From the IMG/VR virus record IMGVR_UViG_2537562195_000010: 53,150 nucleotides of DNA; one strand, written 5' to 3'. This document shows positions 1-53,150 of the stretch, piece by piece. Numbering within the stretch: position 1 is the first letter of the stretch; each line of letters starts with the position of its first letter. Source of the stretch: a virus (Duplodnaviria; Heunggongvirae; Uroviricota; Caudoviricetes). Both the position numbers and the translations under genes were made by a program. The notes beneath the pieces are model-generated. The model worked only from the letters and a program-made list of their open reading frames with translations, was not told the DNA's origin and did not search any database.

Positions 1-1131
1 TCAAATGACCAGTTTTTTCCACTCTTTACCGCGTACATCGTTGTAAATATCGGTCATTTTTTGATTCGAATGACCCAGCAAAATTTGGGTATCAATTCCC
101 TGCTCCCTGAACAATCGCTCTGATAAAGATCTCTGCTCATGGAAAGAGGGTGGAGTGCCATTAGCGCGCCAGTTGTAATCCACAGAATCCCGGGCTTTTT
201 TAAATGCAACTGTCAACGTTGCTGGCTTAACCATCCCGCCGCGCTTAGCTGTCCCTTTAGCATGATGGTGGTGCAATAACCACGGACTAAGAACGCAATC
301 GCGACAGGATGACACTACATCATCCAGGGTGAGATTTAATTTATCGCAACGCAGAGCCAGAGGGATGGCAATCCGGGTTCCTGTTTTTTGCTGTTCGACA
401 TGAAGATAACCATCCCTGATATCCGAAAATTTCATTTTGCAAATATCTGAAAGGCGCTGGCCTGTCATCAGCGCCAGCAGCATACCACGTTGTAAAAAGT
501 AACCATCCTTTTCCGCTGCATTATAAATCATCATCCACTCATCAAAGGTCAGTCGTTGCCGTGATATCCGTACCTGTGGTTTTTTTGCCGATTCTGCAGG
601 GTTAAAGCCTGGCGAGACATCGCCCGTTTGCTGGGCCTCCCGGAAAACATCAATCAGTACTTTCCTGAAAATTTGTCCCATTCTGTTATGTCCTTTTGCC
701 TTGTAATCTTCCAGCACCGATACCACATCTTTTACGGTTATGGCATCTAATGGTCTGGTACCAAAACGTTCATCAAATACCCTGAGAGGGGATGCTTTCT
801 GTTTCAGTGTGTTGAGTTTGATCTCTCCGTTTTCATATCTTTCCTGTTGAATTTTTCGGTAACTATTCAGAAAAACAGAAACGGTTGATGAACCACCGGT
901 ATCACGAATAATTTTCTCCTGCAGAGTGAGCATTTGTTCCATTTGTTGCCTGGCAAGACGGCTGTTCGCTTCTGCTGCAATAGCTTCTGCCTGTTTCTGG
1001 TCAATACTGCCGAGCCCGTGATTTTTTCCTGTTATGGGATGCCTGTAACGCCAGTAAACTTTGTTATTTCTTTTGTCAAAATACGGAGATAATCCCGGAA
1101 CTTCAGTTTTATATTTTCGTGGGCGCGCCAT
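1..1131 (-). CDS. int: Tyrosine-type site-specific integrase (phage integrase)
   Basis: 376 aa ORF; stop codon at window positions 1-3; C-terminal catalytic-domain motifs typical of lambda-family integrases (R...HxxR...Y region, 'LLGHSNQKMTDIY'); overlaps the excisionase start by 23 nt as in lambdoid int-xis operons. Confidence 0.9.
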   Translation of the reverse strand: MARPRKYKTEVPGLSPYFDKRNNKVYWRYRHPITGKNHGLGSIDQKQAEAIAAEANSRLARQQMEQMLTLQEKIIRDTGGSSTVSVFLNSYRKIQQERYENGEIKLNTLKQKASPLRVFDERFGTRPLDAITVKDVVSVLEDYKAKGHNRMGQIFRKVLIDVFREAQQTGDVSPGFNPAESAKKPQVRISRQRLTFDEWMMIYNAAEKDGYFLQRGMLLALMTGQRLSDICKMKFSDIRDGYLHVEQQKTGTRIAIPLALRCDKLNLTLDDVVSSCRDCVLSPWLLHHHHAKGTAKRGGMVKPATLTVAFKKARDSVDYNWRANGTPPSFHEQRSLSERLFREQGIDTQILLGHSNQKMTDIYNDVRGKEWKKLVI

Positions 1132-1357
1132 CTTCCAGTATCCTCTTCAAAGCAGGGTGATCTGTGGCGATCACTTCCGGCTTGTTTACCATTCCGACAA
1201 AGCGAGCTCGAGGATCCACTCGCCAGTGTCTTCCAACTTTTTTGGGGAGAGGAAATATCATTCCGGCTTTAGCGTATTTACTTAACGTGCCCGGAGTCGG
1301 GACCGGGTCACTGAATTCCTCTTTTGCCCACTCAGTGAGAAGAATAAGTCTTGCCAT
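1109..1357 (-). CDS. xis: Excisionase (Xis-like DNA-binding protein)
   Basis: 82 aa ORF immediately upstream of and overlapping int; small basic protein 'MARLILLTEWAKEEF...' of the prophage excisionase type. Confidence 0.75.
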   Translation of the reverse strand: MARLILLTEWAKEEFSDPVPTPGTLSKYAKAGMIFPLPKKVGRHWRVDPRARFVGMVNKPEVIATDHPALKRILEDGAPTKI

Positions 1358-1421
1358 GAGAGTTGTTCGCTAATCATGGTCGCCGCCACTATAGCTTGCG
1401 GGCGACGACCGGGGTTGAACA

Positions 1422-3893
1422 TTAAAAATCAGCCTGACTCGGGAGCAGTTTTTGCCAGATGGCTGAAACGTATTTTGCCTGGTAACGCGCATCGTGCAGC
1501 GCGTTATGGCGTTCACCTTCGAATGGAATAGTCGTTCTTGCGTCGAAATCCATCACCAGTCCCAGAGCAACCATCGTTCTTACATCGCGATCATTGGTGT
1601 AACGCCACGGGCAGGGGATCTCCTGCCGTTCATATGAACGGCGTAAAATCACGTTGTCGAAAGTTGCACCGTTACCCCAGACCTGAACAAAAAATTCACC
1701 GGAGTTTTCGTCGATAAATTCCCGGAATTGCAGCAGTGCATCATCCAACGGGATTTCATCGGTCAGAATGGCGGATTGTGCTTCGCGTGACTGTTTCAGC
1801 CACCACTTAATGGTGTCCCGATCGATGACCCCGCCTGCGGTTTCCAGATCGATAGTTTTGCTGAATTCTGGCCCCATCTCTCCGGTTGCCGGATCAAAAA
1901 ACTTACCGGCTATAGCGTTTATTGGCGCATCAGGATTTTTTCCCATTGTTTCAAGGTCAATCATCAGATGGTGCCACAACCTGCTGGTGGATGTGATTTC
2001 ATGATGACCGTTCACTTTAATTAAGGGATTTGCTGTTTCGCCAGTTTTATTATCGCTGGCGTGATACTGATCGCTGACAGTGTTCTCCTTGTGCAGATGT
2101 TCAGTGCCTTCCATTTCCTCCGGATCATTTTCCTGAGCTTCAGCCTGATTCTCTTCATCGAATGTTTCCTGGTAGGTTGCGTTCCCCATCACCGCACCAC
2201 AGTCAGGACAGTTGCCGCCACCGGTCTGACCGCATGCGGTGCAAACTTTTTCCAGTTCCTGTTGCACTGCTGGTTCTGGTTGTTGTTCTTCTGGCCCGTT
2301 TTGTTGCGTATCCGGGCTGTTTTGTTCCGCTTCTGGCTCATTTTGTTTCTCGTTGGGCTGATTCTGGTCCTCAGCGTCGCGACTCTGGATCCCTTTCACC
2401 CATTTCGGATCATCCGGGTCGCTAATCCCTTCAACAAATTCACCACGTGATGCAGCAAGCAATTTATCGGCGTCAGGCTGGCTGATATTGGCTGCCTGCA
2501 TAATTTTGTTTACTTCGTCAGCGGTAACTTTTACCGGCTCTGGTTGTTCTGAATCTTCTGCGGTATCTGTATTTTGCTGTAAGCCCGTATATGTGCCATT
2601 TTTTCGGGCAAAATATTCTTCTTTTGAGATTTCGGTACCACCGGCAGCCAGCGCCTTGTCCAGGCCAGAAAGTTTGTTTGCCCTGCCGTATTTTTCCCCG
2701 TCCTTATCGGTAAAGACGAAATAAAACGGTCCTTCACGCTCTACAGATGGTTCAGCTTCCACCAGGATTTCATTTTTTTGAGAATTGGATTCCGCCGTCT
2801 CCACTGGATCAGTTTGTGCTGCTGACGACAGGATAGCATCAGCAGAGCTCTGGTCTGTTTCTTCATGTTCAAACACGCCCTTTGTCGTCAGGTATTCGCT
2901 GATGTATTTGTTCAGTGCAACGGGATCTTTGTGAATGTCGATCGGGCGCTCACGAACAAGGCCGAAAATAGTCTGACGGTCATAGCGAAGCGCATCAGGC
3001 TGTTTGCGCATTGATGCTGAGATACGCTTCCAGTCTTCGCGATCCTTGTCGATAACCTCATTTTTAGCCCAGCGATGGATGGTACCGTCAATGTTTCCTG
3101 CATCCACATCCCCGGGCCAGAGGGCGCAGGCCAGTTCTTTATCCAGTGTTTTCCATGTCTGCCTGTATTCGCGACGAATGGCTGTAGTGACAGGGTTGAT
3201 TTTTGCTGCTGAGTTTTCGGTGAGGTGCTGGTTAACTCTGGTGCGTGCGAGATCAACAACAGACGTATATTTTCCGGTTTTCTTGCGTTCACCTTCGCGA
3301 CGTTTTTTCCAGATGCGCATCTCTGCCTGAATTTCTGGCCATTTGGCACCAGGCTTACATTTATGCTTAACCCACCCGATGGCATGCAGTTTAATCTCCG
3401 GATACATGGCGTTAACTTCTGGCATTTTCATCAACGCTTCAACGATATGTCCGTTGAAGGTTGCCATGTCTTCCTGCAACAATTCCTGTGCGCTAATCAC
3501 CATATCAACGGTGATGTTTTCACATGTGTCGAACTTAACCATGACAGCGTTCTGTACTTCAGGGGACAGCTTGTCAAAAGTGACATTCATCGGATCTGAT
3601 TCAGTCTCAACCGGGACAAAGGAAGCAGACTCCTCATCCCAGCGGTTTTCCAGCATATATTCAGCATCCCAGGAGTCGAGGGCTGGGCGGGGTGTACCGG
3701 GTTTATCCTCACAGACAAGAAATTTATAAGCGCAGTCCTGAGCAGCCGGATAATGTTCAAGGAATTGCCAGTGAAATTTTGCGCGGGCGCGACGTTCATC
3801 ACCGGCTTCAATGGCTGTGGCCACAGCAACAGCGCCCTCGTTTTTTATTGCCTGTTCGTCAGGAATGGCGGCGCAAATAAATATTTTACTCAT
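1422..3893 (-). CDS. Phage exonuclease, large form, with C-terminal DnaQ-like 3'-5' exonuclease (DEDDh) domain
   Basis: 823 aa ORF; C-terminal region has 'DLETMG', 'GNGATFD' and 'HNALHDARY' motifs consistent with a DEDDh exonuclease; central Q/E/P-rich acidic low-complexity linker; position equals the exo/recE slot of lambdoid early-left operons. Confidence 0.7.
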   Translation of the reverse strand: MSKIFICAAIPDEQAIKNEGAVAVATAIEAGDERRARAKFHWQFLEHYPAAQDCAYKFLVCEDKPGTPRPALDSWDAEYMLENRWDEESASFVPVETESDPMNVTFDKLSPEVQNAVMVKFDTCENITVDMVISAQELLQEDMATFNGHIVEALMKMPEVNAMYPEIKLHAIGWVKHKCKPGAKWPEIQAEMRIWKKRREGERKKTGKYTSVVDLARTRVNQHLTENSAAKINPVTTAIRREYRQTWKTLDKELACALWPGDVDAGNIDGTIHRWAKNEVIDKDREDWKRISASMRKQPDALRYDRQTIFGLVRERPIDIHKDPVALNKYISEYLTTKGVFEHEETDQSSADAILSSAAQTDPVETAESNSQKNEILVEAEPSVEREGPFYFVFTDKDGEKYGRANKLSGLDKALAAGGTEISKEEYFARKNGTYTGLQQNTDTAEDSEQPEPVKVTADEVNKIMQAANISQPDADKLLAASRGEFVEGISDPDDPKWVKGIQSRDAEDQNQPNEKQNEPEAEQNSPDTQQNGPEEQQPEPAVQQELEKVCTACGQTGGGNCPDCGAVMGNATYQETFDEENQAEAQENDPEEMEGTEHLHKENTVSDQYHASDNKTGETANPLIKVNGHHEITSTSRLWHHLMIDLETMGKNPDAPINAIAGKFFDPATGEMGPEFSKTIDLETAGGVIDRDTIKWWLKQSREAQSAILTDEIPLDDALLQFREFIDENSGEFFVQVWGNGATFDNVILRRSYERQEIPCPWRYTNDRDVRTMVALGLVMDFDARTTIPFEGERHNALHDARYQAKYVSAIWQKLLPSQADF

Positions 3894-14157: not shown

Positions 14158-14520
14158 ATGCTCATAGAGTTGGTTTTACCTTACCCGCCGACGGTGAACA
14201 CTTACTGGCGACGCCGTGGCAGCACATATTTTGTATCAAAAGCCGGGGAGCGTTATCGCCGGGCAGTGGCGCTTATTGTTCGCCAGCAGCGACTGAAATT
14301 AAGCCTGTCCGGACGGCTGGCAATAAAAATTATTGCAGAGCCACCGGATAAGCGCCGCCGTGACCTGGACAATATTCTGAAAGCACCGCTGGATGCGCTG
14401 ACGCACGCGGGGTTGTTAATGGACGATGAGCAGTTTGATGAAATCAATATTGTACGTGGCAAGCCAGTATCTGGTGGACGGCTGGAGATAAGAATTACAG
14501 AGGTGGGTGTGCATGAATAA
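14158..14520 (+). CDS. rusA: Crossover junction endodeoxyribonuclease RusA (Holliday junction resolvase)
   Basis: 120 aa; 'PDKRRRDLDNILKAPLDALTHAGLLMDDEQ...GGRLEIRITE' matches the RusA catalytic region. Confidence 0.9.
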   Translation: MLIELVLPYPPTVNTYWRRRGSTYFVSKAGERYRRAVALIVRQQRLKLSLSGRLAIKIIAEPPDKRRRDLDNILKAPLDALTHAGLLMDDEQFDEINIVRGKPVSGGRLEIRITEVGVHE

Positions 14521-15178
14521 CCAGTATTTACAGTTTGTTCGTGAGCAACTCATGATTGCCACTGCGGATCTTAGTGGGTCGACAAAAGGCCAGCTGGAAG
14601 TCTGGCAGGAAAATGCCCTGTTCGATACAGGGCGTTGCAGACGCAAAAAAATTCGTTACCGCGATGAGGTAACCGGAAAAATGATCACGCGGGATAATCC
14701 CCCGATCCCGGGTAAACAATCACTGGCGAAAGGCTCATCAATTGCCCTGGTCAGTCCGGTTGAGTTTTCGACATCATCATGGCGACGCGCCGTTCTGTCT
14801 CTTGAAGAACATCATAAAGCCTGGCTGCTGTGGTGTTACAGCGGTAGCATTTGCTGGGAGCATCAGATCGCGATAACGCAGTGGGCGTGGACTGAATTTA
14901 ATGCTCAATCCGGTACCAGAAAAATTGCAGGAAAAACTCTGGTGCGCCTGAAGACGTTGATCTGGTTGGCGGCGCAGGCGGTAAAAGCTGAGCTTTTTGG
15001 TGGGGAAGGTTACGAATACCAGGAACTGGCGTTACTGGTGGGAGTAACAACCAAAAACTGGTCCAAGACATTTACTGGTCACTGGGTTGCAATGAAACAC
15101 ATTTTTCATCGGCTGGATAGTGAAGCTTTATTGTTGGTGGAGGGAACACGTTCAAAACAAAAGGCGGCATTTTCATAG
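14513..15178 (+). CDS. Late-gene antitermination protein Q
   Basis: 221 aa; phage antiterminator Q family by sequence character and position (after rusA, before the late promoter/terminator); ATG 14513 with GAGGTG RBS, overlapping the rusA stop. Confidence 0.8.
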   Translation: MNNQYLQFVREQLMIATADLSGSTKGQLEVWQENALFDTGRCRRKKIRYRDEVTGKMITRDNPPIPGKQSLAKGSSIALVSPVEFSTSSWRRAVLSLEEHHKAWLLWCYSGSICWEHQIAITQWAWTEFNAQSGTRKIAGKTLVRLKTLIWLAAQAVKAELFGGEGYEYQELALLVGVTTKNWSKTFTGHWVAMKHIFHRLDSEALLLVEGTRSKQKAAFS

Positions 15179-15431: not shown

Positions 15432-16145
15432 ATGGATGACAGTGCTCTGCTCAGAAACTCTTCACTTTTTGTTGCTTATATGGGCTGTCTCGGATGGGGG
15501 AGCGCTTATTTCTATGGATGGGGTACTTCATTTTACTATGGCTTTCCATGGTGGGTTGTCGGGGCTGGTGTCGATGATGTAGCACGAAGTTTGTTTTATG
15601 CTGTGACAGTTATTGTTATATTCCTTATTGGATGGGGAGTTGGTATTGTTTTCTTTTTGGGCATAAAACAAAAGCGCAATATACAAAATTTGAGTTTTAT
15701 CCGGCTTTTTCTCGCGATATTGCTGCTTTTTATTCCACCTGTTCTGGAGTTTTCTGTAATTCATCAGCATGTTGAGCCAGATGTACTGATTTTCTGTGTT
15801 CTTGCTGCCTTTGCAATCACGCTTTTTGTCAGGTCTGGAAGAAGACTTGTTTCAGTCAAATGTTTTTCGGAAATGTCTGTTATTCGCCATCACCGAATTG
15901 AGTTCATGATGGCTGGGTTTATGATTTATTTCTGGGCATTCTCTCTTATTGCCGGTTGGTACAAACCACAGTTTAAGAGGGAATATCAGACGGTCCACTA
16001 TGAGAATGTATGGTATTACATTATTGCGCGCTATGATGATCGTCTGGTGTTATCGAAATCATACAGGAGTGGGGGTAAGAAATTCGTTATATTTAATAGC
16101 GGAAATATTAATGATTTTGAAATTAATACTGTCAGAGTACGTTAA
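15432..16145 (+). CDS. Hypothetical multi-pass membrane protein (AT-rich moron)
   Basis: 237 aa; at least four hydrophobic helices (e.g. 'LFYAVTVIVIFLIGWGVGIVFFLGI') plus a C-terminal soluble ~70 aa; markedly AT-rich relative to flanking phage genes; no clear RBS. Confidence 0.5.
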   Translation: MDDSALLRNSSLFVAYMGCLGWGSAYFYGWGTSFYYGFPWWVVGAGVDDVARSLFYAVTVIVIFLIGWGVGIVFFLGIKQKRNIQNLSFIRLFLAILLLFIPPVLEFSVIHQHVEPDVLIFCVLAAFAITLFVRSGRRLVSVKCFSEMSVIRHHRIEFMMAGFMIYFWAFSLIAGWYKPQFKREYQTVHYENVWYYIIARYDDRLVLSKSYRSGGKKFVIFNSGNINDFEINTVRVR

Positions 16146-16667: not shown

Positions 16668-17726
16668 ATGTTTAATACTGTAAAAATATCCAGTTGTGAG
16701 TTAATCAACGCCGACTGCCTGGAATTTATCCGGTCGTTACCCGAAAATTCTGTTGACCTGATAGTCACGGACCCGCCGTACTTTAAAGTGAAGCCTGAGG
16801 GCTGGGATAACCAGTGGACGGGTGATGAGGATTACCTGAAATGGCTGGACCAGTGTCTGGCGCAGTTCTGGCGGGTGCTGAAACCTGCCGGAAGTCTTTA
16901 CCTGTTCCGTGGCCATCGCCTGGCGTCTGACATTGAAATCATGATGCGTGAACGCTTCAGTGTGCTGAACCATATTATCTGGGCGAAGCCGTCCGGACGC
17001 TGGAACGGGTGCAACAAGGAAAGCCTGAGGGCGTATTTCCCCGCCACAGAGCGCATTCTGTTCGCGGAACACTATCAGGGGCCGTATCGCCCGAAAGATG
17101 ATGGCTATGAGGCGAAGGGCAGGGCACTGAAACAGCATGTGATGGCTCCGCTGATTGCTTACTTTCGTGATGCGCGTGCTGCCCTGGGGATAACGGCAAA
17201 ACAGATAGTGGATGCCACAGGAAAGAAAAACATGGTGTCGCACTGGTTCAGTGCCAGTCAGTGGCAGCTACCGAACGAAAGCGATTATCTGAAATTACAG
17301 GCGCTGTTTGCCCGGGTGGCAGAAGAGAAGCATCAGCGGGGTGAACTGGAAAAGCCCCACCACCAGCTGCTGGAGACGTATACTTCACTGAACCGGCAGT
17401 ATGCGGAACTGCAGAGTGAATATAAGCATCTGCGGCGGTATTTTGGCGTGACGGCGCAGGTGCCGTACACGGATGTGTGGACGCATAAACCGGTGCAGTA
17501 CTATCCCGGGAAACATCCGTGCGAAAAACCGGCAGAAATGCTGCAGCAGATAATCAGTGCGAGCAGTCGTCCGGGTGACCTGGTTGCAGATTTCTTCATG
17601 GGGTCGGGTTCGACAGTCAAAGCCGCGATGGCGCTGGGGCGTCGTGCAACTGGCGTTGAGCTGGAGACTGAACGTTTTGAGCAGACGGTCAGGGAAGTAC
17701 AGGATTTAGTCAGTCAGAATGGATGA
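16668..17726 (+). CDS. DNA methyltransferase (beta-class N6-adenine/N4-cytosine, DPPY motif)
   Basis: 352 aa; motif IV 'DLIVTDPPY' near the N-terminus and motif I 'DFFMGSGST' near the C-terminus (beta-class order); no adjacent restriction endonuclease, so likely an orphan phage methylase. Confidence 0.85.
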   Translation: MFNTVKISSCELINADCLEFIRSLPENSVDLIVTDPPYFKVKPEGWDNQWTGDEDYLKWLDQCLAQFWRVLKPAGSLYLFRGHRLASDIEIMMRERFSVLNHIIWAKPSGRWNGCNKESLRAYFPATERILFAEHYQGPYRPKDDGYEAKGRALKQHVMAPLIAYFRDARAALGITAKQIVDATGKKNMVSHWFSASQWQLPNESDYLKLQALFARVAEEKHQRGELEKPHHQLLETYTSLNRQYAELQSEYKHLRRYFGVTAQVPYTDVWTHKPVQYYPGKHPCEKPAEMLQQIISASSRPGDLVADFFMGSGSTVKAAMALGRRATGVELETERFEQTVREVQDLVSQNG

Positions 17727-17766
17727 TATTGCAGGATTAGTTACGTACCGTTATTATCATGCGCCC

Positions 17767-17842
17767 GGCCCTTTAGCTCAGTGGTGAGAGCGAGCGACTC
17801 ATAATCGCCAGGTCGCTGGTTCAAATCCAGCAAGGGCCACCA
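17767..17842 (+). tRNA. tRNA with CAU anticodon (Met or lysidine-modified Ile2)
   Basis: Hand-folded cloverleaf: acceptor GGCCCTT/AAGGGCC, D-arm GCTC...GAGC, anticodon loop CTCATAA, T-arm GCTGG-TTCAAAT-CCAGC, encoded CCA. Confidence 0.85.
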
Positions 17843-17850
17843 TATCCATA

Positions 17851-17927
17851 CCGCCATTAGCTCATCGGGATAGAGCGCCAGCCTTCGAAGCTGGCTGCGC
17901 GGGGTTCGAGTCCTCGATGGCGGTCCA
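17851..17927 (+). tRNA. tRNA-Arg (anticodon UCG)
   Basis: Hand-folded cloverleaf: acceptor CCGCCAT/ATGGCGG, anticodon stem CCAGC/GCTGG with loop CTTCGAA, T-loop TTCGAGT, encoded CCA. Confidence 0.85.
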
Positions 17928-18205
17928 TTATCAGCATTATGCGTTGTTGGTTCTGATGAGTGAATCATTGTCTTTTGAGCAACAGGCTATCATATAAGAT
18001 AGCCTCAGACTTCCTTGTTTATTCTCGCCGGATGCTTCGTAGATATTTGCAGGCATCTGTATGCAGGGGTATTATTGCGGCATATATCATCCGGAAAAAT
18101 AAAAACTACATGCTGATCCGGAGATGATAGTTACAAGTCCTCCCGGATCCCGCATATTTACTATATTTTATAGATAATTGTTCTTGTTAATATGGAGATG
18201 GATAA

Positions 18206-18634
18206 ATGTATTGCCGTGCTGTACCGGTTCTTGTTTTGATATTAGCCAGTCTGACAACTGGCTGCACAAAAGATGTATCGACAAATAATTATGATGCTTC
18301 TCTGTATCACTCAGATAAATTAATAAAGTCACAAAATTTGAGCTCATCGGAACGTAGCCCTGATGCCAGTGAAGAAATCCGGCAGTATGCCATTCAGGTC
18401 AGGAAAGCCATAGAAGAACAGTTAAAGGATGCGAGTAAGTATTCAGGAAAAGAGTGTTCACTGAGAATGTATATGGCCCCGAATGGTCTTCTGCTACAGG
18501 TTAAAAGAGAAAGCGGTGATCCCGATTTATGTCGTGAAGCGATGAATGCAGTAAAGAATGCTGATATACCATCACCACCGTCTTCAGGAGTATATAAAGC
18601 ATTTAGAAATGGCGTGCTGGATTTTAAACTCTGA
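18206..18634 (+). CDS. Lipoprotein with TolA C-terminal (domain III)-like domain
   Basis: 142 aa; signal peptide with lipobox-like 'LTTGC'; C-terminal 'YAIQVRKAIEEQLKDASKYSGKECSLRMYMAPNGLLLQVKRESGDPDLCREAMNAVKNADIPSPPSSGVYKAFRNGVLDFKL' closely parallels the E. coli TolA C-terminus as I recall it (...GDPALC...KIPKPPSQAVYEVFKNAPLDFKP); AT-rich moron. Confidence 0.7.
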   Translation: MYCRAVPVLVLILASLTTGCTKDVSTNNYDASLYHSDKLIKSQNLSSSERSPDASEEIRQYAIQVRKAIEEQLKDASKYSGKECSLRMYMAPNGLLLQVKRESGDPDLCREAMNAVKNADIPSPPSSGVYKAFRNGVLDFKL

Positions 18635-18700
18635 CAGGGGGGAGAAGATTTTCTCCTGTCCTGATGATTTTGGGGCGCTGGAAAGATATTGTGCTGTGAA

Positions 18701-18950
18701 GTGTTAAATCCCTCACAATTCAGTAAGTTGACAGTTGCCTGTCAGACTGAGCATTTGTTAAAAAAATTTCGCATGGTGAATCCCCCTGTGCGGAGGGGCG
18801 ACTGGTGAACGGTATGATCTCTTTGATGATCGTAAGCGAGAATACGCGGGTTTGGTGTCACCGGGCTGAACTCACCGGGAGGCACCCGGCACCATGCTCA
18901 TGGTGATACAGAAATGCGGCTTCAGCCCCTCTCCGGAGGGGCTTTCTTAT
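18701..18950 (+). repeat. Structured repeat unit A (family of five; possible sRNA gene or promoter-terminator cassette)
   Basis: Contains the conserved blocks 'GTTAAATCCCTCACA', 'TTGTTAAAAAAA', hairpin 'GGTGAATCCCCCTGTGCGGAGGGGC', hairpin 'CACCGGGAGGCACCCGGCACC' and terminator 'GCCCCTC-TCCG-GAGGGGC-TTTCTT' (18925-18948). Confidence 0.7.
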
Positions 18951-19110
18951 GGACAAAAAAAGCCCGCGCTGGGAGACGCGGGCGGCAAGGAATAAACAAT
19001 AAAACGTGAAGTAATACTTCAACTGGCGAATAATACCCGACAGTAATCACTCTGCGCAATAGCGTGGCCTTTTTCGAATTGCGGGCTGTAGTCTCCCTTC
19101 TGCTGGGTGT

Positions 19111-19266
19111 CCTGGTTGCAGATTTCTTCATGGGGTAGGGTTCGGCAGTTAAAGCAGCGATGGCGCTGGGGCGTCGTGCAACTGGCGTTGAGCTGGATAC
19201 CGGGCGTTTTGAACAGACTGCGCAGGAAATCAGGGATGTATTTAGCGGGAGCGGTTTGCAGAAGTA
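19111..19266 (+). pseudogene. Remnant of a DNA methyltransferase 3' end (duplicate of the C-terminus of the 16668..17726 gene)
   Basis: Near-identical to 17578-17726 ('CCTGGTTGCAGATTTCTTCATGGGG...GGCGTCGTGCAACTGGCGTTGAGCTGGA...') but with an in-frame TAG ('FFMG*') and no upstream gene body. Confidence 0.6.
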
Positions 19267-19330
19267 ATCTCCCAAAATGCCATTTTTGGAATATACTGGT
19301 ATTAAGTCTTTTTGCTAAGGTTAATTCAAA

Positions 19331-20056
19331 ATGGATGTTGCCTGCTCTGTGGTCCTGATTCGCTATCCGATAGATATTTTTCTTGAAAAAGAAAAAGTTT
19401 CACTCGATGCCGGAAGTGTTATGCTTGTTGCCAGAAATATAAGAGGGCTTTTCTGTGCTTATGCCGACAGAGTGAAAATGGCAGATATAAGTAACAGCGT
19501 CGTCAATCAGTATCTGGAAAGGGAGTGTGAACTGACGGAGTATACACCGACAAAAATTCCTCTTTATTTGATGTCTGATATTTACAATACGGAACTGGCG
19601 GAGGCTTTAATAACCCAGCATAGTGAATCCAGTGATACTTTGAAGGATTTCTCTGTTATAACCGCATTTTCATGTATCTCCTTATTTGCAACAGACAGAC
19701 GTCTGCCATTATTTTTGTCCGGTGCTGTAAATAATATCAGCTGTAAAGTAAGGGCTATAATTCAGACCGACATATCGGCAGGCTGGATGCTTGGTGTGAT
19801 TGCATTACAATTGCATATGAGCGAAAGCTTGTTGAAGCGAAAACTTAAGGATGAAGGTTATAGCTTTAGTCGGTTGTTGCTGGAGGAGCGAATGCGTGTT
19901 GCTGTTAATCTTGTATGTTTCCAGCGAGAGTGTGGACAAGCGATAGCGGAAAAATGTGGTTACTCAAGTAAGTCCTACTTCATTTCTGTATTTCACCAGT
20001 ATTATGGTGCACCACCTGAGAGCTATGCATATTTGCAGAAAGCAGACGTTATCTGA
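19331..20056 (+). CDS. AraC/XylS-family transcriptional regulator (prophage-encoded)
   Basis: 241 aa; C-terminal double-HTH region '...LHMSESLLKRKLKDEGYSFSRLLLEERMRVAVNLV...IAEKCGYSSKSYFISVFHQYYGAPP' typical of AraC-type regulators; AT-rich island. Confidence 0.75.
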   Translation: MDVACSVVLIRYPIDIFLEKEKVSLDAGSVMLVARNIRGLFCAYADRVKMADISNSVVNQYLERECELTEYTPTKIPLYLMSDIYNTELAEALITQHSESSDTLKDFSVITAFSCISLFATDRRLPLFLSGAVNNISCKVRAIIQTDISAGWMLGVIALQLHMSESLLKRKLKDEGYSFSRLLLEERMRVAVNLVCFQRECGQAIAEKCGYSSKSYFISVFHQYYGAPPESYAYLQKADVI

Positions 20057-20144
20057 TGTTTTTCATCAGGCATATATTGATTGACTGTATTAGATATAGT
20101 CTGAATGTGTTCAGCATAAAAAGTTATAATCATTTGGTGTTTGC

Positions 20145-20423
20145 GTGAATATTGATGAGAAAATCAGATGTAGCCAACTGTTACAGCGTATTGAAGCCGT
20201 CAATGTGGAACGAACAAAGGTCTTCAGTCGTCTGACAGTTTTATTTTGTACCCCTGATCGACGTTCAGGTCAGGAGATGGTTCTTCTGGATGTAGATGCA
20301 CTTCGGAACGTCTGTGAGGAGTTCACCGCGGCTAATTCGGAGTTACTGAGTCTTGTTCAGGAGTACAACAGAATTGCAGGTAGTAACGGTTTTGATGAAA
20401 TCAAAATTATATCCCGTGGATAA
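20145..20423 (+). CDS. Hypothetical protein downstream of the AraC-family regulator
   Basis: 92 aa ORF with GTG start; AT-rich; no family recognised. Confidence 0.4.
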   Translation: MNIDEKIRCSQLLQRIEAVNVERTKVFSRLTVLFCTPDRRSGQEMVLLDVDALRNVCEEFTAANSELLSLVQEYNRIAGSNGFDEIKIISRG

Positions 20424-20671
20424 AACATATCCTGTATATTTATGTTGTTACATACAGGCGCTTTTAGTATCTGCCGCACGGCAGTTGTACTTCAGAATAA
20501 GATGCTTTTGTGACTGGTGGTGTTGTATCTGGGGTTAGCCAGGAGGCAGGTTCAGAGAGTCCGGTGGTAATTATGTGTATGCAGTGGTTGTTGCTGTACC
20601 GTGGGCAAGTTCTGGAACTGGCTTCGTCCATTGTAGATGATTGTTAGCTGGATATCAGTTACCTCATGGAA

Positions 20672-20907
20672 ATGTTAAATGACTCACAATTCGGTTGATG
20701 GGCTATTGTCTGATCGATGGAAGTCTTGTAAAAACGAGCCAGCATAGTGAATCCCCCTGTGCGGAGGGGCGTCTGACATGGTCTCCATAGCGATGGTCAC
20801 AATACGCAGATTCAGTAGTCAGGCTGAATCTACCGGGAGGCACCCGGCACTATGCTGCTTATGGTGTATACATAGCGATCGGCCCCTCTCCGGAGGGGCT
20901 TTTTTTG
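20672..20907 (+). repeat. Structured repeat unit B
   Basis: Same conserved blocks as unit A ('GTTAAATGACTCACA', 'AGTGAATCCCCCTGTGCGGAGGGGC', 'TACCGGGAGGCACCCGGCAC', terminator 'GGCCCCTCTCCGGAGGGGCTTTTTTT'). Confidence 0.7.
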
Positions 20908-20929
20908 TGCGGGAAAAGGCTGTGTTGTT

Positions 20930-21175
20930 AAGTGTTAAATTCCTCACAGTTCAGATGGTTGATGCTTGCCTGTCTGAGGGGGAGTTGTTAAAAAAGTTCT
21001 GCATGGTGAATCCCCCTGTGCGGAGGGGCGACTGGTATGATTTGCATCTTTTCTGTTGTAGGCAATGCAAACGCGGGTTCAGGGACACCAGACTGGACTC
21101 ACCGGGAGGCACCCGGCACCATGTTCATGATGATACAGATACGCAGTGTCAGCCCCTCTCCTGAGGGGCTTTTTT
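20930..21175 (+). repeat. Structured repeat unit C
   Basis: Same conserved blocks; terminator 'AGCCCCTCTCCTGAGGGGCTTTTTT' at 21151-21175; variable central segment. Confidence 0.7.
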
Positions 21176-21202
21176 ATGCAGGAAAAACGCTGTGTTGTGA
21201 AA

Positions 21203-21436
21203 TGTTAAATTCCTCACAGTTCAGATGGTTGATGCTTGCCTGTCTTACGGGGAGTTGTTAAAAAAGTTCTGCATGGTGAATCCCCCTGAGCGGAGGGGCA
21301 TATCAGCGCAGGTGTTTCTACTCTATCCTTTCTGTGCGGGTTCAGGTGCTGATACTGAACTCACCGGGAGGCACCCGGCATCATGCATATGGTTAACAGA
21401 CAAGTAGCGAAGCCCCTCTCCGGAGGGGCTTTTTTA
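21203..21436 (+). repeat. Structured repeat unit D
   Basis: Same conserved blocks; terminator at 21411-21436. Confidence 0.7.
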
Positions 21437-21462
21437 TGCAGGGAAAAGGCTGTGTTGTGAAA

Positions 21463-21690
21463 TGTTAAATTCCTCACAATTCATGAGGTTGATGATTGTC
21501 TGATTGATGAGGAGTTTGTTAAAAAAAACGGGCATGGTGAATCCCCCTGTGCGGAGGGGTGATATCGTATCATTTCCTGTGTGGCCGACTGATATCACGG
21601 ACATTTGTTCACCGGGAGGCACCCGGCACCATGCAGTATACAGAGATTAGGCATACATCCAGGCTCCTCATCGCAGGAGCCTTTTTACAT
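21463..21690 (+). repeat. Structured repeat unit E
   Basis: Same conserved 5' blocks; central segment forms its own inverted repeat ('GTGATATCG...CGACTGATATCAC'); different terminator hairpin 'GGCTCCT-CATCGC-AGGAGCC-TTTTTA'. Confidence 0.65.
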
Positions 21691-21918
21691 GTAAAAAAAA
21701 CCGCTCCTGGGAAGAGCGGTTGGCAAGGAAGCAAGGAATAAATAACAAAACGTGAAGTAATTTATTCAGCACCCTAATAATACCTTAGAGTAATCACCTT
21801 GCGCAACTGTAAGGGCGTATTTCTTTTTTGCGGGCTGTTTTTCTGTGTGACTTTTGTGTTTCCGGAGGTCAGCCCGTGCCTTCTCTGACTCAGAACATTA
21901 TCCCGGCCGGGAGGATTC

Positions 21919-23883
21919 ATGGCATTTAAACACTACGATGTGGTCAGGGCGGCATCGCCGTCAGACCTTGCTGAACGACTGACACAAAAACTGAAGGAGG
22001 GCTGGCAGCCATTTGGCAGTCCGGTGGCCATCACGCCTTATACCCTGATGCAGGCCATTGCGGCGGAAGGTGATGTCACCACACCAGTGGCGGTGACCGG
22101 TAATGAGGGTAAGGCGGTGGCTGTCAGTGCCACCAGCGACCCGGAGTATTACTTTGTTGTGGTTCTGGCAGGGCAGTCAAATGGCATGTCGTATGGTGAA
22201 GGTCTTCCGCTGCCGGAGACATATGACCGTCCGGAGCCGCGCATTAAGCAGCTGGCGCGCCGCAGTACGGTGACACCGGGCGGTGCAGCATGCAAATATA
22301 ACGACATCATTCCGGCGGACCATTGTCTGCATGATGTGCAGGACATGAGCCGCCTTAACCATCCGAAAGCGGACCTGTCAAAGGGGCAGTACGGAACCGT
22401 GGGGCAGGGGCTGCATATTGCCAAAAAATTGCTGCCGTTTATACCGGCGAATGCGGGCATTCTGCTGGTTCCGTGCTGTCGTGGTGGTTCAGCGTTCACC
22501 ACCGGAGCTGATGGCACATACAGTGACGCGAGTGGTGCCTCGGAGAATTCAACCCGCTGGGGTGTTGACAAGCCGCTGTACAAGGACCTTATCGGTCGAA
22601 CAAAAGCAGCACTGAAGAAGAACCCGAAAAATGTGCTGTTTGCCGTGGTGTGGATGCAGGGGGAATTTGATTTTGGCGGTACGCCGGTAAATCACGCAGC
22701 ACAGTTTGGTGCGCTGGTTGATAAATTCCGTGCAGACCTGACGGATATGGCCGGTCAGTGCGTTGGTGGCTCTGCTGGCGGTGTTCCCTGGATATGTGGA
22801 GATACGACGTATTTCTGGAAGCAGAAGAACGAATCCACGTACCAGACGGTGTACGGCAGCTATAAAAACAAAACGGAAAAGAATATCCATTTCGTACCGT
22901 TCATGACGGATGAGAACGGGGTGAATGTGCCGACGAACAAACCGGAAGAAGACCCGGACATTCCGGGTATCGGGTATTACGGTTCGAAATGGCGTGACAG
23001 CTCAGCCACCTGGACGTCACAGGACAGGGCGAGCCATTTCAGCACCTGGGCACGCCGGGGGATTATTTCCGACCGTCTGGCAACGGCGATTCTGGTGCAC
23101 GCCGGGAGAACCGCTGAATTCATTACCGGAAAACAGCCTGATATGGTGAGGCCCACCGTACCTTCCGGTGAAGGTCCGGAGAGAGAGGCGGAAGCCCCGG
23201 CCAGTAAGCGTACCCTGATGAGTCTGCTGGCATCCGGCGAAGACCTGGCATCACAGGGCTGGCGCTATTATCACAAACCGGCGGGCGGAGACAGTGTTAA
23301 CAAAAACATTGCTGAAGCGGTGGTCAGTGATGCGGGGGCTACGGGAGGTAAGGCTCTGCAACTGAACAAACCGGAAAACCACATCTGGTTTCTGGAGCAT
23401 GATGCAGCCGGACAGGGGGCGGAGTTACTGAAGAAGGGCGGACGTGTGAGCGTACGGTTTAAGTTGCCGGGTTCACTGGTGCCGAATCAGTTTGCCCTGG
23501 GCATTTACTGGCAGTTGTCGTCCCTGCCGGAGGGGGTGACGCTGTCAGGAGAAGGTAACGATATGCTGATGTCCTTCTTTCTGCAGACGGATACGACGAA
23601 CCTGAACGCGATGCATCACAGGAAGCCGAATGCGAAGCTGGATACATTCGGGGTCTTTGATAACGGATGGCACACGCTGGCTTTTGAGTTTGCCGGAAAC
23701 AACAGCATTCAGGTGACACCAGTACTGGATGAGAAACGGGGAGCGGCGTTCACACTGGTGAAGTCACCGGCATCGGGGGTGGCGGACAAACTGCAACTGA
23801 CCGATATATCAAAATCGGCGACGTATACGCTGCTGATTGACAGCATTGCGGTGGAAGTGAACAGCACAGACACTGCGGCATGA
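21919..23883 (+). CDS. nanS: NanS-p-like sialate O-acetylesterase (DUF1737 N-terminus plus SASA/DUF303 esterase domain)
   Basis: 654 aa; N-terminal 'MAFKHYDVVRAASPSDLAERLTQKLKEGW' and esterase region 'VVVLAGQSNGMSYGEG...AVVWMQGEFD' match the NanS-p family encoded downstream of stx in Shiga-toxin phages. Confidence 0.8.
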   Translation: MAFKHYDVVRAASPSDLAERLTQKLKEGWQPFGSPVAITPYTLMQAIAAEGDVTTPVAVTGNEGKAVAVSATSDPEYYFVVVLAGQSNGMSYGEGLPLPETYDRPEPRIKQLARRSTVTPGGAACKYNDIIPADHCLHDVQDMSRLNHPKADLSKGQYGTVGQGLHIAKKLLPFIPANAGILLVPCCRGGSAFTTGADGTYSDASGASENSTRWGVDKPLYKDLIGRTKAALKKNPKNVLFAVVWMQGEFDFGGTPVNHAAQFGALVDKFRADLTDMAGQCVGGSAGGVPWICGDTTYFWKQKNESTYQTVYGSYKNKTEKNIHFVPFMTDENGVNVPTNKPEEDPDIPGIGYYGSKWRDSSATWTSQDRASHFSTWARRGIISDRLATAILVHAGRTAEFITGKQPDMVRPTVPSGEGPEREAEAPASKRTLMSLLASGEDLASQGWRYYHKPAGGDSVNKNIAEAVVSDAGATGGKALQLNKPENHIWFLEHDAAGQGAELLKKGGRVSVRFKLPGSLVPNQFALGIYWQLSSLPEGVTLSGEGNDMLMSFFLQTDTTNLNAMHHRKPNAKLDTFGVFDNGWHTLAFEFAGNNSIQVTPVLDEKRGAAFTLVKSPASGVADKLQLTDISKSATYTLLIDSIAVEVNSTDTAA

Positions 23884-48134: not shown

Positions 48135-51100
48135 GTGGGTAAAGGGGGCGGCAAGGGGCACACACCGCGTGAGGCGAAGGACAATCTCAAATCCACGCAG
48201 ATGATGAGCGTGATTGATGCCATCGGTGAGGGACCGGTGGAAGGCCCGGTGAAGGGACTGCAGAGTATTCTGGTGAACAAAACCCCGCTGACGGACACGG
48301 ACGGTAATCCCGTGATACACGGTGTGACCGCCGTCTGGCGTGCCGGGGAGCAGGAGCAGACACCGCCGGAAGGCTTTGAGTCCTCCGGGGCGGAAACCGC
48401 ACTGGGTGTGGAGGTGACGAAGGCAAAGCCGGTGACGCGCACCATCACGTCAGCGAACATTGACCGTCTGCGGGTCACCTTCGGGGTGCAGTCACTGGTG
48501 GAGACCAGCTCAAAGGGTGACCGTAATCCCTCTTCTGTCCGGCTGCTGATTCAGCTTGAGCGTAACGGTAACTGGGGGACGGAGAAGGATGTCACCATTA
48601 ACGGCAAGACCACCTCGCAGTACCTGACGTCGGTGATTCTGAATAATCTCCCTGAGCGCCCCTTTAACATCCGGATGGTCAGGGTGACGGCGGACAGTAC
48701 CACGGACCAGCTGCAGAACAGAACGCTGTGGTCGTCATACACCGAAATCATCGATGTGAAACAGTGCTACCCGAACACGGCCATTGTGGGGCTGCAGGTG
48801 GATGCGGAGCAGTTCGGTGGCCAGCAGATGGTGGTGAACTACCATATCCGCGGCCGCATCATTTAGGTGCCGTCAAACTATGACCCGGAAAAACGCACCT
48901 ACAGCGGTATCTGGGACGGGAGTCTGAAACCGGCATACAGCAATAACCCGGCCTGGTGCCTGTGGGACATGCTGACCCACCCGCGCTACGGCATGGGAAA
49001 ACGCCTGGGGGCGGCGGATGTGGACAAGTGGGCACTGTATGCCATCGGGCAGTACTGTGACCAGACGGTCCCGGATGGTTTCGGGGGCACAGAGCCGCGG
49101 ATGACTTTCAATGCGTACCTGTCACAGCAGCGTAAGGTCTGGGATGTCCTGGGGGATTTCTGCTCGGCGATGCGCTGTATGCCGGTATGGAACGGCCAGA
49201 CGCTGACGTTCGTTCAGGACCGTCCGTCGGATGTGGTGTGGCCGTACACCAACAGCGATGTGGTGGTGGATGATAACGGCGTGGGGTTCCGCTACAGCTT
49301 CAGTGCCCTGAAGGACCGGCACACGGCGGTGGAGGTGAATTACACCGACCCGCAGAACGGCTGGCAGACTTCCACGGAACTGGTGGAAGACCCGGACGCC
49401 ATCCTGCGCTACGGGCGCAACCTGCTGAAGATGGACGCGTTCGGCTGTACCAGCCGCGGTCAGGCTCACCGTGCCGGACTGTGGGTGATAAAGACCGAAC
49501 TGCTGGAAACGCAGACGGTGGATTTCACGCTCGGGTCTCAGGGGCTGCGGCACACGCCCGGTGACATCATTGAAATCTGTGATAACGACTATGCCGGGAC
49601 CCTGACCGGCGGACGCATCCTGTCCATCGATGCCGCCAGCCGCACACTGACGCTGGACCGTGAGGTGACACTGCCGGAGACAGGTACATCGACGGTGAAC
49701 CTGATTAACGGCAGCGGTAAGCCGGTGCGCGTGGACATCACTGCACACCCCGCCCCTGACCGGATACAGGTCAGCATTCTGCCTGATGGCGTGGCGACAT
49801 ACGGTGTGTGGGGACTCTCCCTGCCGTCACTGCGTCGTCGCCTGTTCCGCTGTGTTTCCATCCGGGAAAACACGGACGGCACCTTTGCCATCACGGCGGT
49901 GCAGCATGTGCCGGAAAAAGAAGCCATTGTGGATAACGGGGCCCGCTTTGAGCCGATGTCCGGCTCACTGAACAGCGTCATCCCGCCGGCAGTGCAGCAC
50001 CTCACGGTGGAGGTGAGTGCCTCAGACGGCCAGTATCTGGCGCTGGCGAAATGGGACACGCCGCGGGTGGTGAAGGGCGTGCGCTTCAGTCTGCGCCTGA
50101 CCAGTGGCAGTGGTGAGAACAGTCGCCTGGTGACCAGCGCCATCACGGCGGACACGGAGTACCGTTTCAGTGGCCTGCCGCTCGGGGAATACACCCTGAC
50201 GGTCAGGGCGATAAACAGCTACGGCCAGCGGGGCGAACCTGCCACCACCACATTCCGGATTAATGCACCGGCGGCACCGGCCAGCATTGAACTGACGCCG
50301 GGCTATTTTCAGATAACGGCAGTACCGGTGCTGGCAGTGTATGACCCGACGGTACAGTATGAATTCTGGTTCTCAGAAAAACGCATCACGGACACGGCAC
50401 AGGTGGAAACCTCTGCCCGTTATCTGGGTACCGGCAGCCAGTGGAGCGTCTCCGGCCCGCACATTAAGCCGGGGAAGGATTTCTGGTTTTATGTGCGCAG
50501 CGTCAACCTGGTGGGGAAATCTGCGTTTGTGGAGGCCAGCGGGCAGGCCAGCAATGATGGTGAAGGGTATCTGGAAATTTTCCGTGGGCTGATAGATGAG
50601 GCGCTGCTGGGGAAGGCACTGAAAGAGCGTATTGATGCGTCAGCCCTGCGTACTGAGGTCACGCAACTGGAAGAAGACATCCGCCAGCGACTGGAGACGG
50701 ATGTTGCGGAAGTGACCCGAAAAATCGGGGAGGCGGAAAACAGCCTCACGCAGCTGGTTGCGAAAAAGAATGAGGACCAGACGCTGGCCATCGCGCAGGT
50801 GAGTCAGCAGGTGGACCGGGTGAGCAGTGAAATCACACAGACCGTCAGCCAGAGCACGGAGGAAAACGCCAGGCAGATAGCGCAGGTCCGCCAGTACGTG
50901 GATGACAAAGGGAGTGAAATCACCTCGACCACGGATAAAAAGCTGGAAGACCAGAGCGCCACCATACAGCAGATACAGCGGGTGCAGACAGACACAAATA
51001 ACGACCTGGCTGCACTGTACATGCTGAAGGTGCAGAAAACAAAAAACGGCATTCCGTATGTTGCCGGTATTGGTGCGGGGATTGAGGATGCTGATGGCCA

Positions 51101-51821
51101 GCCCCTGAGCAATATACTGCTGCAGGCGGACCGTATCGCGATGATTAACCCGGAGAACGGCAACACCACGCCGCTGTTTGTGGCGCAGGGGAATCAGCTG
51201 TTTATGAACGACGTGTTCCTGAAGCGACTGTTTGCAGTGAGCATCACCTCGTCCGGCAATCCCCCGACGTTCTCCCTGACGCCGGAGGGCAGGCTGACGG
51301 CCCGCAATGCGGACATCAGCGGACATATCAGTGCGAACTCGGGCACGCTGAATAATGTCGTGATAGCGGAGAACTGCACGATAAATGGCACGCTGAAAGC
51401 GGAGAACATTATTGGTGATCTTGTGAAATGTGCCGGGGTGGCTTTTCCGGTGGATGGTAGTTACCTTGCGAACGGTACACGAACGCTGACGGTGTATGAC
51501 GATCACAGCTTTGACCGGCAGATTATAATCCCGCCGATAATCTATGTCGGGTCAAAACAGGAATCCCGCACCAGTAATGACATCTGGACAGAGTGCTTCC
51601 TGCATGTTGATCAGAATGGACGCCGGATTTATTCAGGCAGGTCAGTGGAAGAGCCGGGAATTTTCAGCGGGATCATCGATATGCCAGCTGGCGGTGGTCA
51701 TATCACCCTGAGTTTTACCGTGAGCTCACGGCGTCAGAATAACAGTTGGGGCAGTTCACGAATCAGTAACCTTCAGGCGATAGTGGTGAAGAAAAACAGC
51801 GCGGGGATCAGCATCCGCTGA
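48135..51821 (+). pseudogene. Tail tip / host-specificity protein J with an in-frame amber (TAG) codon
   Basis: GTG start at 48135 ('VGKGGGKGHTPREAKDNLKSTQ...'); single reading frame from 48135 to 51821 interrupted only by TAG at 48864-48866 ('RGRII*VPSNYDP'; lambda J has Gln at the equivalent position as I recall); C-terminal receptor-binding region intact. Confidence 0.8.
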
Positions 51822-52304: not shown

Positions 52305-53150
52305 ATGGCAGTCAGAATATCGGGTGTGCTGAAGGACGGGGCCGGTAAGCCGGTACCGGGATGCACGATAGAGCTGAAAGCGCGCCGCACAACGGAGACG
52401 GTGATTGTCACCACGGTGGCGTATGGTCAGCCGGGGGAAACCGGCAGTTACAGTATGGATGTTGAGCCGGGGTTGTACCGGGTGACGCTGAACACGGAAG
52501 GGTACGCGCCGTCATATGTGGGTGACATTCTGGTGAAGGCTGACTCAGCACCGGGAACGCTGAATAAATTTCTGATGGACCTGGAGGACGCACAGTATTA
52601 CCCGAAAGCCCTTGCAGAGCTGGAAGCGGTGGCCGCGGAAATCCTGAAACGTGCGGAAGCGTCAGCGGCGAGTGCAGAGGAAGCGAAGAAACGGGCAGAG
52701 AATGCGCGGGGACCGAAGGGGGATAAGGGAGACACGGGGCCACAGGGTATTCCCGGGCCAAAAGGCGATACCGGCGAGCGGGGGCCAAAGGGTGAGCGTG
52801 GTGAGGCAGGCCCACAGGGGGTACAGGGGCCGCGGGGTGAAAACGGCCCCGTGGGACCGCAAGGAGTGCCGGGTATTCAGGGGCCTGCTGGTCCTGCGGG
52901 CCCGCGAGGTGAAACCGGAGCCAGAGGCGAAAAAGGAGAGCCGGGAGATCCCGGAGGACCTCCGGGACCAAAAGGTGACACTGGCCCCAGAGGGGAGCCG
53001 GGGCCTCAGGGCCCGGCAGGTCCGAGGGGACCTGCCGGAGAGAGAGGGCCGCAAGGATTGCAGGGTGTGGCAGGGGAGAGAGGCGATACAGGTCCGGCTG
53101 GTCCACAGGGTATACCTGGACCTCCGGGACCAACAGGTAGCGTCGGTCCT
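52305..53150 (+). CDS. Side tail fibre protein (Stf-like) with collagen-like Gly-X-Y repeats; 3' end outside window
   Basis: ATG at 52305 with GGAGG RBS; '[28 protein letters not shown]...' parallels the lambda Stf N-terminus; from ~52720 a long (G-X-Y)n run '[37 protein letters not shown]...'; open to the window end, which is why it is absent from the ORF track. Confidence 0.8.

Follow-up and report, generated by a model that had tools for sequence, protein, structure and literature searches.

A diverged Psr-family AraC/XylS regulator in a lambdoid prophage of Escherichia coli and its possible role in host acid resistance

Does an AraC/XylS-type regulator carried by a prophage serve the phage, or does it act on the chromosome of its host? 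We addressed this question for a regulator gene in the Caudoviricetes record IMGVR_UViG_2537562195_000010 of IMG/VR, a stretch of 53,150 nucleotides that was analyzed as a whole and is referred to here as the window. An original prediction, made from the sequence alone, had placed a 241-aa regulator and a companion open reading frame (ORF) of 92 aa (ORF92) in a markedly AT-rich segment bounded by structured repeat units, and had proposed that the regulator may control host loci, in the way that prophage AraC-like regulators of pathogenic E. coli act on virulence or acid-resistance regulons. Both frames were found at the coordinates it gave, with ATG and GTG start codons, respectively (Table 1). 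The GC content of the segment 19280–20520 was 40.1% compared with 51.8% for the window, placing it in the lowest 0.4% of 1241-bp intervals, and that of the 88-bp spacer between the two frames was 29.5%. Based on sequence comparison, the 241-aa gene is best described as a prophage cargo gene (“moron”) for a diverged paralogue of PsrA/PsrB, kin of the chromosomal GadW and YdeO. We consider it probable (roughly 0.6) that its product activates the chromosomal glutamate-dependent acid-resistance (GAD)/hdeA regulon.

The C-terminal ~100 aa of the protein contain the two helix-turn-helix (HTH) motifs that define the AraC/XylS family, and residues 158–232 matched Pfam HTH_18 with 47.2 bits (cut-off 33.6) and HTH_AraC with 41.5 bits (cut-off 26.6). 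With a lambdoid prophage as its setting (see below), the gene is the prophage-borne AraC/XylS-type regulator that had been predicted. The protein matched PHROG 1450 over its full length (E 4e-92), and the closest solved structures were the DNA-binding domain of GadX (3mkl, E 1.9e-18) and Rns (4e-15). The best NCBIfam matches were YdeO (NF007407, residues 1–230, 119.8 bits, equivalog cut-off 348) and GadX (NF007432, C-terminal half only, 92.7 bits, cut-off 500); because both scores lie far below the cut-offs, the regulator is related to both proteins but orthologous to neither. A search of 5.8 billion proteins returned relatives in E. coli and Shigella only, namely its own cluster at 99% identity and proteins of 236–242 aa at 54–63%. 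One of the latter (P0015) and the 237-aa ORF found at the psrA locus (ECs1087) of the O157 Sakai prophage Sp4 differ by a single residue.

In a neighbor-joining tree the regulator formed a deep branch within the Psr clade. Its identity was 63–64% to a sister protein (P0002, in viral contig L133), 58.6% to PsrA of Sakai and 54–60% to other PsrA/B-like proteins, which are themselves 63–90% identical to PsrA, compared with at most 37% to PatE-like proteins, GadW, YdeO, AppY, EnvY, and GadX. Unlike the PsrA-like proteins, which share 74–90% identity with one another, the window regulator is only 57–60% identical to them. The individual values outside the clade were 36% for Sakai ECs_0287, 34% for GadW, 29.5% for YdeO, 27.5% for AppY, and 26% for GadX. 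We take ECs_0287 to be the PatE orthologue from its position in Sp1 (CP-933H/OI-8). PatE is likewise prophage-borne, can be aligned over its full length and has the same domain plan, but the PatE-like protein is only 36–37% identical to the regulator and falls outside the Psr clade. The K-12 proteins YdeO, GadW, GadX, and AppY share the recognition-helix motifs at 26–34% identity; AppY is located in the DLP12 prophage, and GadX, GadW, and YdeO act in acid resistance.

PsrA is of similar length (237 aa), and both proteins begin with a conserved MxVxCSV N-terminus. The divergence between them is uneven, with ~76% identity in the DNA-binding domain (residues 135–233) and ~47% in the N-terminal domain. 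The recognition helices of the two HTH motifs, MSESLLKRKLKDE and SKSYFISVFHQYYG, are near-invariant across the Psr family. The ratio of nonsynonymous to synonymous substitution rates (dN/dS) was 0.22 against psrA and 0.17 against the homologue in an Stx2k phage, and the regulator is under purifying selection. Conservation extends upstream of the gene: in an alignment of the window gene, the 64% sister, Sakai psrA, and the Stx2k-phage homologue, a TTTxGG..TATA(A/C)T block ~33–38 nt before the ATG was conserved amid otherwise diverged non-coding DNA. A scan for consensus sigma-70 promoters returned none on the plus strand upstream of the regulator gene or ORF92, and the −35 of the regulator gene is poor. 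Because the −10 box is conserved across lineages, we propose TATACT as the Psr family's own −10 and the putative promoter of the regulator. The prediction had pointed to prophage AraC-like regulators that rewire acid resistance, and by its position inside the Psr clade, its identity to PsrA, the shared helices and the shared −10 box the regulator belongs to just that family.

PsrA, PsrB, and PatE are expressed in lysogens, bind to the promoter regions of gadE and hdeA, and turn on the GAD acid-resistance island (PMC10877973; PMC13502914). The documented target of PatE, common to PsrB, is the hdeA promoter from −132 to −45, and in O157 the action of Psr/PatE also represses the LEE (locus of enterocyte effacement) indirectly, through GadE (PMC10877973). 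Induction of gadE/yhiF by PsrA and PsrB thereby leads to repression of type III secretion; for the window protein, the part of this pathway in evidence is the conservation of the recognition helices. If the regulator works as its relatives do, a weak promoter of its own, at the −10 box, would drive its transcription in the lysogen, within AT-rich DNA that is probably silenced by H-NS until induced. Its two HTH motifs, with helices nearly as in PsrA/PsrB, would bind AT-rich sites upstream of the chromosomal gadE and hdeA genes and raise expression of the GAD island. The N-terminal domain, at 47% identity, may sense a different signal or partner than that of PsrA.

Several observations weigh against this proposal. 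The link between the regulator and gadE or hdeA is one of homology, and the 41% divergence from PsrA, which is mostly N-terminal, could mean other targets or a different regulation. The putative promoter consists of a conserved −10 box without a recognizable −35. An AlphaFold2 model of the regulator, built on a family alignment of 13 sequences, had a predicted local distance difference test (pLDDT) score of 46.5, which is unusable and provides no structural argument. The gene order described below, conserved in two lineages, leaves room for a local target. In a literature search we found no mention of WP_000382065, nor a link of AraC regulators to acid resistance in LEE-negative Shiga toxin-producing E. 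coli (STEC).

The 1.3-kb segment was present in 80 of 5426 complete E. coli genomes, always on the chromosome and always at least 99% identical, and the regulator gene occurs at different chromosomal positions among carriers. Named carriers among the matches listed were O43, O91:H21, O104:H21, O104:H7, O113:H21, O22:H8, and O178:H19; apart from those of strains 94-3024 and RM9387, we presume these serotypes to be classic LEE-negative STEC. The sources included humans, cattle, yak, goat, and food. Carriers 94-3024 and RM9387 both lack eae and tir (Table 1 of PMC4393859). In the Psr family, type III effector loci and Pch regulators are found on the same prophage (PMC10877973). No such association was seen here, as PchA, PerC, TccP2, and EspV gave no tblastn match in the window (1–53150; the prophage end beyond 53150 lies outside it). 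Since two carriers lack eae and tir and the window lacks Pch and effector genes, acid resistance is the likely pay-off. In hosts apparently without LEE, the net effect would be improved acid survival on the way through ruminant and human guts and not control of type III secretion. Hence, of the predicted rewiring of virulence or acid resistance, the acid-resistance side is in keeping with the family, whereas the LEE/type III side, and with it the “secretion regulator” phenotype of PsrA, is probably inapplicable.

In the variant alleles the regulator was intact with 2–4 substitutions, and ORF92 had no amino acid changes. A degraded pseudogene in related strains had been named as evidence that would count against the prediction; the gene is not decaying, since each of the three variant genomes and eight viral contigs that were inspected had an intact copy, and 1 of the 80 genomes carried an insertion sequence (IS) in it. 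That sole disrupted copy, in RM10410 (NZ_CP042350.1, 3552–5472 of locus L136), has an ISVsa5-family IS4-like element in the 3′ end of the regulator gene, which alters the C-terminus. A 1-bp difference in allele length was considered as a possible frameshift and rejected, the indel being intergenic, at 20058.

ORF92 is a real gene and not a chance ORF. Compared with an unannotated ORF of phage mEp460, it showed 59% amino acid identity with no indels, the same stop position and a dN/dS of 0.27. Residues 1–92 matched positions 17–108 of PHROG 2873 (E 1e-46), a group of phage proteins of unknown function whose homologues in mEp460 and other lambdoid phages likewise lie between the antiterminator gene Q and the holin gene. 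The window protein is 58–62% identical to the common alleles of this group and has no counterpart to the first 16 positions of the profile, which is 108 residues long. At least 1000 public contigs contain its exact sequence, labeled “hypothetical protein” in GenBank. It is omitted by RefSeq and the Prokaryotic Genome Annotation Pipeline (PGAP) in every complete genome inspected and is also missing from the mEp460 phage record, which constitutes an annotation gap. The family is small, with 18 matches among 1.84 billion representative proteins, all from Enterobacteriaceae where named. A confident AlphaFold2 model (pLDDT 90.7) had a helix at residues 3–35, a beta-hairpin at 39–46 and a second helix at 50–81. 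Fold matches of the model were generic only. Prefoldin beta and the TraM anti-activator were considered as identities for ORF92 and rejected, there being no specific and significant structural or sequence similarity to either. From the modeled coiled-coil hairpin, binding to another protein is the most likely mode of action of ORF92.

The neighbors of ORF92 were counted in the 80 viral-contig loci kept that contain a homologue. The regulator gene was present in only 8, those with the 99% allele. The other 72 had the order methylase, tRNA-Met, tRNA-Arg, ORF92, STnc100, esterase, or the order ORF92, STnc100, TolA-like gene, where STnc100 is a family of small RNA (sRNA) genes. The 90 bp upstream of ORF92 were conserved whether or not the regulator gene precedes it, and the spacer from ~20077 onward aligned with the sequence that precedes ORF92 homologues where the regulator gene is missing. 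No intrinsic terminator was predicted between the regulator gene and ORF92. Given the 72 of 80 loci without the regulator and the conserved upstream region of its own, ORF92 is an independent module, and its most constant neighbor is the downstream STnc100 gene, not the regulator. An STnc100 unit follows ORF92 homologues in almost every locus, with a near-constant spacing of ~520–600 bp from the ORF start.

A remnant directly upstream of the regulator gene records how the present arrangement came about. Positions 19105–19218 are 91% identical to 17573–17686, the 3′ end of the intact methylase gene of the window, with a TCG codon changed to TAG, and PGAP calls the remnant a methyltransferase pseudogene. 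An intact methylase of the remnant's allele is present in viral contig L089, where it ends 63 bp before the ATG of the regulator, with no tRNA genes or TolA-like gene between them. The order methylase–AraC–ORF92 recurs in the sister contig L133 in diverged form (84%, 64%, and 62% identity, respectively), where ORF92 again has 92 aa and a GTG start. Consecutive GenBank accessions of the sister AraC and ORF92 proteins indicate the same adjacency in further genomes. From the arrangements in L089 and L133, the native cassette is methylase–AraC–ORF92. The arrangement in the window arose by recombination of a methylase–tRNA–TolA-like–STnc100 block in front of this cassette. The remnant is a recombination scar, and two different methylase-linked cargo cassettes have been joined. 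The word “companion” in the original prediction therefore holds in part: the gene order recurs in a sister lineage, but ORF92 is not a dedicated partner of the regulator.

These data bear on whether the regulator acts locally, on ORF92, the STnc100 array or the nanS-p-type esterase of the prophage, rather than on host loci. Many AraC/XylS regulators control adjacent genes, and such a role would fit the absence of a predicted terminator before ORF92, the gene order maintained in a sister lineage diverged to 64% and 62%, and the adjacency in further genomes. We nevertheless regard it as unlikely, since ORF92 with the same 90-bp upstream region, STnc100, and the esterase occur without any AraC gene in 72 of the 80 loci, the psrA-type genes of O157 and the Stx2k phage have no ORF92 neighbor, and characterized family members act on chromosomal promoters (PMC10877973). 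Another proposal is that the two proteins form an activator/anti-activator pair in which the coiled-coil hairpin binds and modulates the regulator, as TraM does with TraR. This seems very improbable to us. The same low expectation applies to a functional pair that moves as a methylase–AraC–ORF92 cassette and provides LEE-negative STEC with a signal-gated acid-resistance switch, unlike the PsrA/PsrB circuits of O157.

The regulator gene could also be silent passenger DNA without a current role, retained through recent spread of the prophage. AT-rich DNA is typically silenced by H-NS, in one genome an IS interrupts the gene at its 3′ end, and the identity of at least 99% among all 80 copies fits a recent spread that left little time for decay. 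Against this, purifying selection is apparent in comparison with homologues at 59–64% identity (dN/dS 0.17–0.22), different lineages have kept the start codon, the length of the gene, and the upstream box, and carriers belong to many serotypes and hold the gene at various chromosomal sites, so that we consider a silent passenger quite unlikely. Activation of the GAD/hdeA regulon of the host is the reading we prefer.

The Psr family was already known, and the regulator adds to it a diverged member in a host background that is new, which is not surprising in itself. Studies of the Psr and PatE regulators, all of them in LEE-positive O157, show how prophages connect to the acid-resistance and virulence circuits of their hosts. 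The paralogue described here is, at near-identity, limited to ~1.5% of complete E. coli genomes. If it does activate the GAD island, strains without LEE would carry in it a phage-borne fitness factor for passing the stomach and rumen, and the core role of the family would be acid resistance rather than secretion control. The practical gain is modest: an unstudied regulator receives a better name, useful for annotation, and becomes a reasonable experimental target, and a real 92-aa gene that is absent from RefSeq annotation is flagged.

Table 1 Coordinates of the regulator locus and of other features of the prophage in the window.
Feature	Position	Strand	Details
Lambda-type integrase gene	1–1131		
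Antiterminator Q gene	14507–15178		
Second AT-rich island with 237-aa ORF	15432–16145		39.5% GC
DNA methylase gene, intact	16668–17726		
tRNA-Met (anticodon CAT)	17767–17842		ARAGORN
TolA C-terminal-domain protein gene	18206–18634		142 aa; Pfam TolA, E 3.9e-23; PHROG 5772
STnc100-family sRNA gene	18742–18954	+	RF02076, 172.4 bits; terminator-like hairpin 18924–18943; upstream boundary of the island
3′ end of second DNA-methyltransferase allele	19103–19267	+	Remnant with internal stop; 5′ scar of the AraC cassette
−10-like hexamer TATACT	19292–19297	+	Conserved upstream of psr-family genes; putative promoter of the AraC gene
Psr-family AraC/XylS regulator gene	19331–20056	+	241 aa, WP_000382065.1; Pfam, PHROG 1450, neighbor-joining tree, dN/dS
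AT-rich spacer	20057–20144	+	Small hairpin at the AraC stop; 3′ part is the upstream region of the ORF92 module
ORF92	20145–20423	+	92 aa, PHROG 2873; predicted antiparallel coiled-coil hairpin with beta-hairpin tip
Four STnc100-family sRNA genes in tandem	20713–21692	+	RF02076, 119–141 bits each; downstream boundary of the island
nanS-p-type sialate esterase gene	21919–23883		
OmpC-type porin gene	43854–45017		Pfam Porin_1, E 5e-143; NCBIfam OmpC subfamily, 504.9 bits
Tail protein J gene	48867–51821		

The window is a complete lambdoid prophage, whose late cargo region, from Q to the holin gene, includes the regulator gene and ORF92. The cargo runs, in order, from Q through the AT-rich 237-aa ORF, the DNA methylase, tRNA-Met(cat), tRNA-Arg, the TolA C-terminal-domain protein, one STnc100 unit, the methylase remnant, AraC, ORF92, four STnc100 units, and the sialate esterase to the holin (Table 1). 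The location class is that of psrA in Sakai Sp4, which also lies in the Q-to-lysis region of a lambdoid prophage by ileZ/argN-type tRNA genes; the window gene follows a methylase gene, whereas psrA precedes tRNAs. The Q-to-holin stretch is where toxin phages carry stx. No stx was found in the window, which is therefore not a toxin phage, and among 136 related loci stx was present only in the Stx2k phage. The locus illustrates the exchange of regulators, tRNAs, sRNAs, and small proteins at a hot spot that holds stx in toxin phages. In the Stx2k phage (phiSTEC1575-Stx2k, 6016–8339 of locus L003), a PsrA-like homologue of the window regulator, 89% identical to PsrA, lies in the same position class directly upstream of tRNAs and stx2k, so that some toxin phages hold a Psr regulator and stx2k in one late-region block.

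The structured repeat units that had been seen to flank the island are five full-length matches to the Rfam family STnc100 (RF02076), with 119–172 bits against a gathering score of 47, and each of them terminates in a terminator-like hairpin. STnc100 and the related PasD sRNAs are already known to be encoded by prophages (bioRxiv 10.64898/2026.05.13.724894). The number of downstream units varied between otherwise near-identical carriers, as judged from BLAST pieces in viral contigs. A permissive Rfam search of 17700–22000 gave no additional RNA families in 19000–20700.

Other cargo genes of the prophage were also noted. With the PADLOC defense-system models, the regulator, ORF92, and the TolA-like protein gave no match, and only the methylase matched, to Type II MTase models. 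The 237-aa ORF in the second AT-rich island, between Q and the methylase, had no Pfam, NCBIfam, or PADLOC match and is annotated in RM10042 as “hypothetical protein” (WP_000342737.1). The tRNA gene called tRNA-Met by ARAGORN is identical to one called tRNA-Ile by PGAP, and is the counterpart of the ileZ-type tRNA that Stx-like phages carry, annotated in Sakai Sp4 as ileZ1 (anticodon cat). The TolA-like protein has a short N-terminus that resembles a lipoprotein when the sequence is inspected by eye, and a copy with 66% identity is present in the same region of phage mEp460 and in other loci; it could mimic TolA domain III and, for example, block TolA-dependent colicins or phages. The possibility that a minus-strand ORF at 52408–53133 encodes an effector was rejected, since this ORF is a proline-rich antisense artefact. 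Finally, the OmpC-type porin gene lies in an AT-rich patch amid the tail genes and is a prophage-borne porin cargo gene.
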